In this document: in pieces, positions 29,005 through 32,516 of the stretch | Position numbering within the stretch: position 1 is the first letter of the stretch | How the letters are laid out: each line of letters opens with the position of its first letter | From: Actinomycetota bacterium | GTDB taxonomy: Bacteria > Actinomycetota > Actinomycetes > Nanopelagicales > Nanopelagicaceae | DNA length: 33,379 nucleotides | NCBI GenBank assembly: GCA_041178105.1 | Contig: JBEGVX010000007.1 | Location: 1-33,379 of the forward strand | Direction of reading: 5' to 3' | Notes under the pieces: model-generated | What the model was told of the DNA's origin: nothing | Databases searched by the model: none | Seen by the model: only the letters and a program-made list of their open reading frames with translations | Translations under genes and position numbers: made by a program

Positions 29005-30918
29005 CTACTTCACTTCGATGGTTATTACAGAATTAGGCTGAACGAGTGAGCCCTCACCTGGATTCACCTTGACTACCGTTAATTTCTTACCTTTTGGCAC
29101 CTTGGCTGGTTTGAGAACTTTGACAGAGAAGCCATAATCCTCGAGAAGTTTGATCGCTTTCATCTCTTCGCTTTTGAGCACTCCACTTGGAACTTTGATT
29201 TTCTCTGGACCTTTCGAGACTGTCAGAGCGACATCTGCTCCTTTTGCCAATTCAGGTTCGGTTGGGCTCTGTGCAATCACCGTTCCAATGGGGTATTTGT
29301 CACTGAACTCTTCCGTTTGTTTGACATCAAAGCCAGCTTCGGTGAGTTCATTTAGGGCTTGTTCATAATTTTTTCCGATGTAATTGGCGACGGCTACTAG
29401 CTCTGGCCCCTTACTAATCAGAAGGTTCACTTCACTGTTTTTCTTGACCATTGTCCCCGAGGTGGGTGAGCTAGAAATAATTTGATCCTTTGGAATTTTC
29501 GCGTCGAATTTAGACTGAGTGGAGCCGATGACTAATTTAACATTTGCTAATTCAATAGATGCCTGTGAAACGTTTTTACCTTTCAAGCTAGGCACCTTGT
29601 AGCGCTCGGCACCTTTGGATATTAAAATCGAAACACTCTCTCCTTCAGCAAGCCTGCTCCCAGCAGGAGGATCCATGCTGATGATTTTTCCTTTTGGAAT
29701 CTGCTCATCGAAGAGAGATTTCGATACCTTGACCTTAAATCCAAGTTTTCCAAGAGTTCGTTCCGCCTGTTGCTTTGTGCCGCCGATTACAGATGGGATT
29801 GCAATCTGTGAGCCTGGCCCGAAGAGTTGATACCAACCAGCTATTCCGATTGCGCCTGCGATTGCGAGCGCGACTAATCGATTCCGTCGAACTCGTCGCG
29901 AACTGCGCCTTCTAATTTGTCCCGAGTTATTAATTTGAGGATTAGTCATTTCACGCGGCACGCTCGCTACTGTAGCGCTCTTAATTTTCGATTTTTTAGA
30001 TTTAATTTCGCGCGCTGGCCTGCGGAGCTCCTCTGGAATTCCAAGGGGGAGGCTTAATTGCTGCTCATTGGGATCGAGAATGATTAGAGACTTGCGGATA
30101 TCGTCCTGAAATTCACGGGCGTTTTGGTAGCGCAATCCAGGGTCGGGAGTAGTGGCTCTTAGTACGAGGGTATCGATATCTCTAGTGATTGCGTTGTTGA
30201 GGGTGGATGGAGCCGGCACACGATCATGAACATGGCGATAGGCGATCTGAATTGGAGAATCACCTTCATATGGCTTCTTTCCGGTCAACATCTCAAAGAA
30301 GACGATTCCGAGAGAGTAGATATCACTCTTCTCATCAGCGATGCCACGTTGCACTTGCTCAGGGGCTAAATAGCCAACAGTCCCCATTAATACATTTGCA
30401 TCTGCCGTTAGCGTATTTCCAGTGCTAACGGCGCGAGCTAATCCAAAATCGCCAAGCTTCACCCGGCCATCGGCAGTAATCATGATGTTCTCAGGTTTGA
30501 TATCGCGATGAATGATTCCACGATGATGTGCATACGTCAGAGCAGAGAGCACTTGATCGAGGATTCCGAGCGCCTCTTTCGGATCTAACTGTCCAACGGC
30601 GAAAAGATGGTCACGCAAGGTTGCGCCAGGTATGTACTCCATAACGAGGAAGACTGCTGGAACGCCACCTTGATTCCATCCTTGGTCATAAACTTGAACG
30701 AGGTTGGGATGGGATAAACCTGCGGCAGCTTTTGCCTCGCGGATAAAACGAGATACGAACTCTTCATCAAGTGCGAGATTTTCGTGCATGATTTTGACTG
30801 CAACAGTGCGATCAAGGCGGGTATCAACAGCGGAATAGACCGTTGCCATTCCACCACGAGAGATAGCGCTCGTTATCTCATAGCGTCCATCAATGAGTTC
30901 GCCAATTCGCTCCGACAC
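29005..30918 (-). CDS. pknB: PASTA-domain Ser/Thr protein kinase (PknB/Stk1 family; PknL-like locus)
   Basis: GGMATVY, VAVK, HRDIKPEN, DFGLA, GYLAPE, one TM segment and about four PASTA repeats. TAGAAT -10 lies 6 nt before the GTG start. Confidence 0.92.
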   Translation of the reverse strand: MSERIGELIDGRYEITSAISRGGMATVYSAVDTRLDRTVAVKIMHENLALDEEFVSRFIREAKAAAGLSHPNLVQVYDQGWNQGGVPAVFLVMEYIPGATLRDHLFAVGQLDPKEALGILDQVLSALTYAHHRGIIHRDIKPENIMITADGRVKLGDFGLARAVSTGNTLTADANVLMGTVGYLAPEQVQRGIADEKSDIYSLGIVFFEMLTGKKPYEGDSPIQIAYRHVHDRVPAPSTLNNAITRDIDTLVLRATTPDPGLRYQNAREFQDDIRKSLIILDPNEQQLSLPLGIPEELRRPAREIKSKKSKIKSATVASVPREMTNPQINNSGQIRRRSSRRVRRNRLVALAIAGAIGIAGWYQLFGPGSQIAIPSVIGGTKQQAERTLGKLGFKVKVSKSLFDEQIPKGKIISMDPPAGSRLAEGESVSILISKGAERYKVPSLKGKNVSQASIELANVKLVIGSTQSKFDAKIPKDQIISSSPTSGTMVKKNSEVNLLISKGPELVAVANYIGKNYEQALNELTEAGFDVKQTEEFSDKYPIGTVIAQSPTEPELAKGADVALTVSKGPEKIKVPSGVLKSEEMKAIKLLEDYGFSVKVLKPAKVPKGKKLTVVKVNPGEGSLVQPNSVITIEVK

Positions 30919-30943: not shown

Positions 30944-31510
30944 TCAGGTGTTGGCAGGCGCTCCGTAGGGTAGATGTAATGTGCAATTCGCTCGATTCTG
31001 ATTCTGAGAAAAGAATTCTTTTTGCCGAGCAATCCAAGTGAGCATCTCCTTTTGGATATGCGTTCCATCTCGTTTTAAGACTCGCTCAAGTCCAAGTTCA
31101 ACGGGAATGTCCATCCAAATTGAAAGCTGCGCTGCGGATGCAACGCTCGGTAAGGCGCATCCCACCCCCTCAAGAATGATTAAAGGTGTCGCGGGTACCG
31201 TAATTCTCTCGCTGTAGCGCCCTGCTATCCAGTCATACTTCATGTACTGGACCGGCTCCGAACTATGTATCGGGTTGATGATCCCTTCGATGATTGTTCG
31301 CTCGAGCGTGGGGGTTAACGCATCCTCCCAGCCGTTGTATAAATCGTCGCAATGAATAATCTCGCCATACCCGAAAGTTGTCACTATCTCTTGAGCGAGA
31401 GTTGTTTTGCCTGCCCCAGCTGGTCCATCAATGATAATTAAAGCAGGAGGTGCGCTCGCACTTCTGTTGTGCAGTAGCGCAGTTATGCTATTGAGGAGAT
31501 CGTGCTGCAT
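30944..31510 (-). CDS. P-loop small-molecule kinase (uridine-kinase-like fold), substrate unknown
   Basis: IIIDGPAGAGKTTLA, IHCDDLY, YDW, IILEGVG, RVLKRDG; overlaps the upstream Pnu transporter by 23 nt. Confidence 0.8.
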   Translation of the reverse strand: MQHDLLNSITALLHNRSASAPPALIIIDGPAGAGKTTLAQEIVTTFGYGEIIHCDDLYNGWEDALTPTLERTIIEGIINPIHSSEPVQYMKYDWIAGRYSERITVPATPLIILEGVGCALPSVASAAQLSIWMDIPVELGLERVLKRDGTHIQKEMLTWIARQKEFFSQNQNRANCTLHLPYGAPANT

Positions 31511-32066
31511 TTTTATACCAACGGACCCAACCTAATATCGCTACTCCGGTGAAAATTAAGTAGACCAGAGAGGTGAAATATGCCTCACCACGGAAATACT
31601 GAATAGTGAGCACGATGTCGACGGCAAACCAGAGCGCCCACGTCTCCCATTTCTCTTTGACCATAATTACTTGCGCGATGAGACTGCCTAGTAGCCCAAA
31701 GGTGTCGCTCCAAATTGCAACAGCCCCAACTGATTTCAAGTAAGGCGCGAAGGCGAGCCAGCAAGCTGCAAATGCGAGAACAACAATTGCTCGACCCTTG
31801 AAGGAGAGGCTAGTTGGTTCTGCACCACTTTTTTTCCATGCAAACCAACCCCAGATACCGAAGGTAACGAAGATAAGTTGAGTAGCAAAAGATGCGAAGT
31901 ACTTGGCATCAAAGAACCAAATTGCATAGAGCGCAGAGCTTGCAATCCACCACGGCCACATCACTTTTCGTCCGGTAGTTCCCAGGTAGACAGCTATCAA
32001 CGAGGTGACGGCCGCTACGAATTCTAAAAGCGAAACTTGGTAGTTCCATGCGGTAAAGAGAATCAT
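31488..32066 (-). CDS. pnuC: PnuC-family vitamin transporter (probably thiamine-type PnuT)
   Basis: Multiple TM segments, GIWGWFAW, D(TF)...Q...WALWFAVD (WxxWxxxD), GWVRW. The start is ATG 32066 after SD GGAAGGGG, downstream of a TPP-like aptamer. Confidence 0.88.
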   Translation of the reverse strand: MILFTAWNYQVSLLEFVAAVTSLIAVYLGTTGRKVMWPWWIASSALYAIWFFDAKYFASFATQLIFVTFGIWGWFAWKKSGAEPTSLSFKGRAIVVLAFAACWLAFAPYLKSVGAVAIWSDTFGLLGSLIAQVIMVKEKWETWALWFAVDIVLTIQYFRGEAYFTSLVYLIFTGVAILGWVRWYKNAARSPQ

Positions 32067-32069
32067 CGG

Positions 32070-32155
32070 TACCCCTTCCAAATCCGCATTACCGGACTGG
32101 TTCTAACGGTCGGTGGCGTGCCACCCTCTCAGCCGTACTTCGGCTCCCGTGCAAT
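32070..32155 (-). ncRNA. TPP-riboswitch-like aptamer with variant P4/P5 internal loop
   Basis: RNA reads ACGGGAGCCGAAGUACGGCUGAGAGGGUGGCACGCCACCGACCGUUAGAACCAGUCCGGUAAUGCGGAUUUGGAAGGGGU. Elements: P2 ACGG/CCGU, P3 AGCCG/CGGCU, UGAGA, hairpin GGUGGC/GCCACC, P4 CCA/UGG, P5 UCCG/CGGA with loop GUAAUG. Confidence 0.85.
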
Positions 32156-32159
32156 TGAA

Positions 32160-32169
32160 AGGATAGCAT
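32160..32169. promoter_or_regulatory. Overlapping divergent -10 hexamers
   Basis: Minus-strand TATCCT (32165-32160) precedes the aptamer; plus-strand TAGCAT (32164-32169) lies 5 nt before ATG 32175. Confidence 0.5.
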
Positions 32170-32174
32170 TAGCT

Positions 32175-32516
32175 ATGCTCAAGTTCGGCTATCTGGCAAT
32201 GATTGCCTTTACGGTTGCTGGCTCATTCTGGCTTGAAATTTTTTTGAAAGTGGGAGTACTACGACGAATTAAACGTGTACTTCTGAGCATCCTGCCCGTC
32301 GCAACTCTTTTCATCATCTGGGATCTCTATGCAATCAGTAGAGGGCATTGGCATTTTGACAGCAAACAGATCCTTGGCATCTTCGGATTTGGCGGCATCC
32401 CACTGGAAGAATTTCTCTTCTTCACGGTAGTCCCATTAGCTGCAATCATGACGATTGAAGCGGTCGGAGTAGTGAAGCGAAAAAACAGCAAATGGAAGTT
32501 TGGTGATGAGAGGTGA
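32175..32516 (+). CDS. crtYc: Heterodimeric lycopene cyclase subunit (CrtYc type)
   Basis: Small membrane protein with IWDLYAI..GHWHF and GIPLEEFLFF. Start reassigned to ATG 32175. Confidence 0.85.
   Translation: MLKFGYLAMIAFTVAGSFWLEIFLKVGVLRRIKRVLLSILPVATLFIIWDLYAISRGHWHFDSKQILGIFGFGGIPLEEFLFFTVVPLAAIMTIEAVGVVKRKNSKWKFGDER

Follow-up and report, generated by a model that had tools for sequence, protein, structure and literature searches.

Introduction

In the thiamine pyrophosphate (TPP) riboswitch, G60, C77 and G78 serve the pyrophosphate of the ligand (PMC3764141). A large collection of variants of this riboswitch, with mutations in the pyrophosphate core of P4–P5, has been reported from many bacteria, and these P4–P5 variants were said to sense thiamine, thiamine monophosphate (TMP) and TPP about equally, in a study announced as in preparation by Roth et al. 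(McCown 2017, PMC5473149). In the acI lineage, a THI element was described upstream of pnuC in four genomes, and the downstream gene was proposed to be PnuT (Kang 2017, PMC5301498). PnuT acts as a facilitator that carries thiamine only in its unphosphorylated form and needs a kinase to trap its substrate (Jaehme 2018, PMC5749112). Two other riboswitches are related by pathway or by gene but are different RNA families, namely the HMP-PP riboswitch (thiS motif, PMC6478431) and the NAD+-II riboswitch (pnuC motif). The accessible parts of PMC12632268, PMC6478431 and PMC12817590 hold nothing on a closed TPP variant. In the mostly non-subscription literature searched, neither the closed architecture nor the kinase reported here turned out to be described.

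A TPP-type aptamer upstream of a pnuC-family gene

We analysed a 33,379-nucleotide stretch of actinobacterial DNA (hereafter, the window). The original prediction had placed a TPP-class element at 32070..32155. The element is on the minus strand, in the short space that separates a gene of the pnuC family (32066-31488) from a divergent gene for lycopene cyclase. Both place and class were borne out: with an E-value threshold, Rfam model RF00059 matches 32059-32160 (minus strand) over all 105 model positions, with 46.2 bits and an E-value of 5.5e-8. This score is below the RF00059 gathering score of 54.3, and at gathering scores Rfam gave zero matches in the whole window. The element is the sole RF00059 match of the source genome, which is 71% complete. 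A variant model, R1, scores 88.9 bits at 32066-32156, its only match in the window, the window being among the sequences from which R1 was built. The HMP-PP and NAD+-II riboswitch families gave no match in the region in Rfam searches with E up to 10.

The aptamer core, supported by RF00059 and R1, lies at 32076..32150 on the minus strand and consists of P2, P3, J3/2, P3a, J2/4, a fused P4/P5, L5 and J4/1. Within it, the pyrimidine-sensor half occupies 32106..32150 (minus strand), where P2 pairs 32150-32147 with 32109-32106, P3 spans 32144-32132, the UGAGA motif 32131-32127 and P3a 32125-32112. As originally claimed, this half (GGGAG, UGAGA, ACC) and the L5 loop agree in the window with the RF00059 consensus. 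We compared the element with 47 other leaders of the same pnuC (alignment A1), omitting L032-L043, which repeat included sequences, L049, which is cut off, and L066 and L081, which are thiB leaders. UGAGA and UAAUG, the latter in the L5 loop predicted to dock on P3, are present in all 48 leaders, and pairs have changed on both sides in P3 (three of four pairs) and in P3a (four of four). The G of L5 is invariant; in solved TPP riboswitch structures this residue stacks on the thiazolium ring. Minimum free energies from single-sequence folding were no better than those of shuffled sequences (z of -0.23, -0.96 and -1.48, the first being that of the window), so support for the fold is comparative and not thermodynamic. 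Contigs from RNA runs cover the element at a depth of only 2-6, which is uninformative on start, strand or level, although pieces from two RNA runs span the closed arm. One RNA piece, at a depth of 2.9, carries a change at 32082 that would turn a G-U pair into G-C, and is too thin to count. Altogether, the element is real and conserved, and it is likely to be functional.

The pyrophosphate-binding loop is closed into a continuous helix

The right arm of the window element forms a fused P4/P5 helix with no internal loop (32078..32100, minus strand), as judged by covariation and a register test. Its 5' strand runs from 32100 to 32093, L5 from 32092 to 32087 and the 3' strand from 32086 to 32078, with a one-base bulge at 32080. 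The six pairs below L5 are intact in 48/48 leaders, with 100% of cells paired, and four of the six have changed on both sides. At the base of the arm, where two further pairs can form, 21 leaders are bulge-free, 23 have a one-base bulge, two have a three-base bulge and two lack the second pair. The whole-structure score was 0.518, compared with 0.224 in shuffled and at most 0.125 in slid controls, the structure having been drawn from the window and kinship inflating all such scores.

In the window, the arm lacks the CG of J5/4 and has two bases fewer in J4/5. The original prediction had described these changes as a replacement of CG by UU with a shortened J4/5. The missing CG and the two lost bases hold, but a mere substitution does not account for a closed six-pair helix in 48/48 leaders. 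Its register, with P4 as CCA/UGG and a G opposite UU, had to be given up: it fits the window but only 8 of the 23 leaders that have an extra base, whereas the continuous helix fits all 23. No leader, the window included, has CG at the C77–G78 position (0/48), and the positions of G60, C77 and G78, rather than standing unpaired in an internal loop between J4/5 and J5/4, are paired in the continuous helix. A G is kept at the G60 position in 40 of the 48, but it is paired, mostly as G-U. The 60–77 pair is G-U in 31 of 47 cells and could open on ligand binding to leave a residual pocket, which speaks against the closed-pocket reading. The pyrophosphate-binding loop is thus closed into a continuous helix, with the aminopyrimidine pocket and L5 intact. 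Homologues upstream of pnuC, suggested earlier as a check on the substitutions, have the closed arm throughout the 48-leader alignment.

P1, Shine-Dalgarno-like sequence and predicted promoter

In the Rfam alignment, P1 of the window element consists of A-U, U-G, U-G, a G.G mismatch and C-G. The original prediction had called this stem weak and warned of decay. P1 is indeed weak, with a duplex energy of +0.1 kcal/mol, but decay and sequencing error alike are countered by conservation of the closed arm in 12/12 same-genus loci and beyond, and by the pieces from two RNA runs that cover the arm. Among low-GC leaders, median P1 energy was -0.6 kcal/mol for 85 pocket-less and -2.1 kcal/mol for 19 canonical sequences, suggesting that switching may be shallow in low-GC pocket-less leaders. 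Weak P1 stems are also common among canonical actinobacterial leaders, 38% of which lie above -2 kcal/mol.

An SD-like purine run, GGAAGGGG (32079-32072, minus strand), starts in the 3' strand of P4, with the first two G of the run being part of P4, and lies 5 nt upstream of the ATG at 32066. The layout is similar in most relatives, and in some leaders of genus g17 the SD is set slightly further on, a few bases past the end of P4. This agrees with the overlap of SD and P4 and the translational OFF arrangement originally proposed. A terminator mechanism was discarded, since no intrinsic terminator was found in 31900-32400. Pairing of the SD with an upstream pyrimidine run is feasible on paper in the window, but relatives do not conserve this pairing, and the pyrimidines occupy the site of the predicted -10; the pairing was likewise rejected.

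Aligned upstream regions point to a predicted promoter with an extended -10-like motif (TGnTAnnnT; 32160..32168, minus strand) that ends 9 nt before P2 and therefore leaves little room for P1. The spacing is similar in most variants: among 105 pocket-less leaders, 93% carry TAnnnT within 5-16 nt upstream, with a peak at 7-9 nt; a strict sigma-70 scan found no promoter at the locus. The divergent lycopene cyclase gene (32175..32516, plus strand; PF18916) starts 7 nt from this predicted -10. Within 32160-32177, the predicted -10 overlaps, on the opposite strand, a TAGCAT hexamer located 5 nt before the lycopene cyclase ATG. From its sequence, this arrangement could possibly represent back-to-back promoters with a leaderless divergent lycopene cyclase mRNA.

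Closed arms follow the pnuC subfamily

R1 matches were found in 150 of 151 genomes sampled from the order, all 150 from family f1 (acI, Nanopelagicaceae). At least 62 bits were reached in 137 of the 151; 66 of these 137 were read, and all 66 have the closed arm. Among the 13 lower-scoring genomes, 11 were read and all 11 are canonical, upstream of thiB, thiC, thiO, ykoE-type or NCS1-type genes. The loss of phosphate contacts with retention of the helices, as originally put forward, is thus a conserved trait. Among named loci, those nearest to the window come from Nanopelagicaceae (acI), with pnuC proteins 94% and 83% identical. Some acI-type pnuC loci appear under Bifidobacterium or Fonsibacter titles (L033-L036, L038, L039, L043 and L050), apparently through mislabelling. 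Two genomes depart from the usual arrangement. In one (L204/L291; G140:C39), the variant switch is kept, pnuC is reduced to its first codons and abuts the kinase, and a second TPP-like match exists. In the other (G059, contigs C32 and C34; L287 and L288), the crtB neighbourhood occurs twice, with the variant at a contig end in one case and the kinase without pnuC in the other; this genome is possibly a mixed bin.

We surveyed the class with R1 on 150 class genomes and two follow-up searches. Outside the family, the best matches that were read were mostly canonical. Closed arms of more than one architecture were found in families f52 and f78 upstream of the same pnuC subfamily, and in f52 also upstream of ykoE-type genes (four leaders). 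In f52, leaders L168, L249, L250, L252, L254 and L256 represent a second pocket-less architecture, with a longer arm and a single 5' bulge, on the same pnuC subfamily; L246, L253, L257 and L258 are pocket-less with a 1x1 G.A mismatch and precede genes for ykoE-type ECF transporters. Short arms in family f16 (L170, L174 and L177) contain G60, C77 and G78, lack A61 and U62 and could pair, making them possible intermediates between canonical and closed forms. In genus g110, the closed arm lies upstream of thiO-thiS-thiG in five of six genomes, and the two genomes read at thiC (G302 and G328) have a canonical switch there together with the closed one at thiO-thiS-thiG. Leaders L186, L214-L217, L271 and L273 of this genus (family f53) provide a natural closed/canonical pair for ligand comparison. 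A phylum-wide search of 400 other genomes with the pnuC protein, a single query and hence no proof of absence, returned no match at E 1e-20.

Altogether, 194 distinct leaders were caught by our pattern. Among these, 93 of 94 leaders of the pnuC subfamily are pocket-less and one (L255) is canonical, whereas 100 leaders of other or unread genes comprise 85 canonical, 14 closed and one unclear; the set is biased by locus retrieval, gene labels derive from motifs, verified for eight examples, and the pattern missed some loci. Counted within the 14 closed leaders are two acI loci in which pnuC is either cut off or deleted, and three short forms that retain G60, C77 and G78 but may be able to pair them. 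Seven canonical control leaders come from unpublished genomes (G066, G083, G089, G091, G095 and G219), and no main claim depends on them. L255, with its canonical switch, belongs to a pnuC gene of this subfamily in another family. In a tree of 61 Pnu proteins it is nested among pocket-less members, which forces at least two state changes; the root lies on very long branches, and the tree does not fix the direction, repeated loss or regain.

The pnuC-family gene alternates with thiamine genes

The gene behind the switch (31488..32066, minus strand) encodes a 192-aa pnuC-family transporter (PF04973, E 1.4e-35). It scores above the cut-off of TIGR01528, the nicotinamide-riboside PnuC model, and the PnuC structure 4QTN matches it with an E-value of 2.5e-5. 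Its translation contains the WxxWxxxD/N motif, and membership of the Pnu family is combined with a thiamine-regulon context. Downstream sequence was available for 39 variant or thiB loci, and there each variant is followed by pnuC and then by a P-loop kinase gene. The fixed downstream neighbour is a pknL-like gene for a PASTA-domain Ser/Thr kinase (29005..30918, minus strand; Pfam), which serves as a synteny anchor and comes next after pnuC and the kinase where contigs reach, or after thiO-thiG in relatives. Six such relatives (genera g7, g14 and g15) have at the same locus a canonical switch with thiO and thiG and a divergent thiE, and in five of their six contigs the pknL-nfo neighbourhood is the same.

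The same pnuC occurs in 49 of 61 family genomes (47 whole, two cut), and the variant was read upstream of 48. In contrast, thiE occurs in 7/61 and thiB in 4/61, and both are absent from all 49 pnuC carriers. These genomes are kin, and the six de novo makers belong to three genera, so that the pattern amounts to few independent contrasts and not to 61. Since pnuC alternates with thiE/thiO-thiG and with thiB, the pnuC-family gene is likely the thiamine importer PnuT. A second pnuC paralogue (ribM/PnuX-like, 221 aa; G000:C172:2444-3109) lies in a different neighbourhood; in other actinomycetes this paralogue has a riboflavin-type context, which matches the PnuX reading in the accessible text of PMC5301498.

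A candidate thiamine kinase

Overlapping the end of pnuC is a gene for a 188-aa P-loop kinase of the uridine-kinase/phosphoribulokinase (PRK) fold (30944..31510, minus strand; PF00485, NF005115), our candidate thiamine kinase. Its structural model (pLDDT 93.7) has its best fold matches among uridine-cytidine kinases, with a TM-score of about 0.7 and phosphoribulokinases also near, and it is about 20% identical to solved enzymes of these two types. It does not reach the udk cut-offs (34.8 against 220.3 bits for TIGR00235 and 40.8 against 180 for NF004018), and no match to ThiK or TPK/ThiN was found in Pfam or among the NCBIfam matches listed (25 of 35). The kinase profile also matches human NRK1 (E 9e-6) and uridine kinases. 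Its relatives are labelled 'uridine kinase' or are unlabelled in their sources, and alignments to uridine kinases are strongly gapped around the nucleoside-binding residues.

The kinase is present in 53 of the 61 family genomes, comprising all 49 with pnuC and all four with thiB; no copy was found in the six de novo makers, nor in two genomes that are incomplete. In the thiB genomes it is still located upstream of pknL, without pnuC or the switch. ThiL is encoded in four of four complete genomes, three of them over the cut-off. TPK was found in none of five genomes, the source genome included, and ThiK over its cut-off likewise in none of the five. The four complete genomes lack thiE, and their ThiD-like matches are absent or partial. 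TPK and thiE were also not found in five f52/f78 genomes. In f52, a different P-loop kinase (AAA_28), which we take to be NadR-kinase-like, follows the same pnuC. With TPK and thiE lacking, no ThiK above the cut-off and thiL present, we infer that TPP must come from imported thiamine through a missing thiamine kinase and ThiL. The downstream kinase is likely this missing enzyme.

Discussion

What we observe comprises the fold and how it is conserved, the operon, and the distribution of the genes. We consider it probable that they reflect a pocket-closed TPP-class riboswitch that has similar affinity for thiamine, TMP and TPP and blocks the ribosome site of an operon for a predicted PnuT and a predicted thiamine kinase. 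A paired pocket leaves no way of reading phosphates as the canonical fold does, and the simplest reading is that discrimination has been lost. A cell unable to build B1 would take up thiamine through PnuT, the downstream kinase would trap it as TMP, and ThiL would then make TPP. When the total B1 pool is high, the ligand would bridge the two arms, with its pyrimidine in J3/2 and its thiazolium under L5. Docking would allow the short base of P4 and the junction to form, so that the SD run starting in P4 would be hidden. The layout of the leader thus suggests a translational OFF switch.

The strongest competitor, although unlikely, is a swap of specificity in which the negative charge of the closed helix works against phosphorylated forms, and the RNA reads free thiamine (or TMP) far better than TPP and so reports how import and phosphorylation are balanced. 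Free thiamine is the only form that PnuT moves (PMC5749112), and the near-uniform pocket loss on the pnuC subfamily (93/94), set against 85/100 canonical leaders among other or unread genes, fits this idea. A canonical thiC switch and a closed thiO-thiS-thiG switch within the same g110 genomes also suggest different signals. However, the genes controlled by the closed form in g110 serve de novo thiazole synthesis, the genomes being thiE-positive, and free thiamine is no intermediate of de novo thiamine synthesis. What is in print on such variants, similar affinity and not preference (McCown 2017, PMC5473149), points to lost discrimination between thiamine, TMP and TPP instead of the swap to a new ligand that was first proposed.

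A structured leader that keeps the fold with weak or no regulation, fixing low translation or protecting the mRNA end, is very unlikely. A weak or absent P1, the little space left by the predicted start and folding energies equal to those of shuffles would suit it, but the single-stranded, ligand-contacting UGAGA and UAAUG are invariant in 48/48 leaders whose stems have diverged, and many canonical actinobacterial leaders have weak P1 stems too. Recognition of HMP-type precursors or breakdown products (HMP, HMP-P, HMP-PP or aminomethylpyrimidine) through the pyrimidine pocket alone is highly improbable. This pocket is the only one surely intact, and closed forms occur at ykoE-type ECF genes (four leaders) and at the g110 thiazole genes (five leaders), the latter resembling the HMP-PP class; yet the L5 G is invariant, and acI genomes with the operon lack thiE (0/49 pnuC genomes) and could not use HMP. 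Of what was originally envisaged, pocket loss stands and an HMP-type ligand is unlikely in acI. Import and phosphorylation of nicotinamide riboside or another nucleoside, with the RNA repurposed for that ligand, is scarcely credible: TIGR01528 is exceeded, the kinase is related to NRK1 and uridine kinases and the gene after this pnuC in f52 encodes an AAA_28 kinase, but the exact alternation of the operon with thiE/thiO-thiG and thiB costs this lead ground, no other route to TPP was found in the genomes searched, a same-subfamily member (L255) has a canonical TPP switch, and of four acI strains, three have de novo NAD synthesis (PMC5301498, accessible text).

Beyond the probable reading of a non-discriminating switch, a bolder and rather unlikely proposal is that of a distinct thiamine-preferring class with more than one origin, arising where free thiamine is imported, joined to the operon's kinase as a new uridine-kinase-fold family of thiamine kinases that supplies the step missing between scavenged B1 and TPP in the lake bacteria of highest abundance. 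Should the RNA prefer thiamine over TPP, the commonest class of riboswitch would hold a genuine swap of specificity. The candidate kinase, if its assignment is true, would close the acI route of B1 salvage. New here are a closed helix that is backed by covariation and almost completely linked to PnuT, the canonical/closed pair of g110 and the candidate thiamine kinase. For the variant class announced in 2017, the pocket-less aptamers provide a large set with natural variation and a clear architecture, and standard Rfam cut-offs miss the variant in most genomes from a lineage that is dominant in fresh water.

The window element resembles the canonical TPP riboswitch (RF00059; E. coli thiM) in P2, P3, the UGAGA pocket, L5, an SD beside P4 and a thiamine-gene context, and its P3a is an actinobacterial feature of canonical TPP riboswitches. 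Unlike the canonical form, it has no J4/5–J5/4 loop and no C77–G78, its P1 is weak, it falls below the Rfam cut-off, and its right arm is two bases shorter on the 5' side. The element and gene of Kang 2017 (PMC5301498) are the same as those described here, strain IMCC26077 having the closed arm (L042); in its accessible text, that study treats the acI element as an ordinary THI element and names no kinase. As with the PnuT of Jaehme 2018 (PMC5749112), a Pnu-family transporter with WxxWxxxD is found beside a kinase gene, but the window kinase has the uridine-kinase/PRK fold and is neither TPK (ThiN) nor E. coli ThiK. The variants of McCown 2017 (PMC5473149) are named in the accessible text without sequences, architecture, taxa or genes, and may be milder than the closed acI form. 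They share with it conserved changes in the pyrophosphate core, an otherwise intact aptamer and a thiamine-gene context, which for the closed form is given by genomic inference at pnuC and directly at thiO in g110. The element is set off from the canonical TPP switch by its defining pocket, and belongs to the kind of variant mentioned in 2017.
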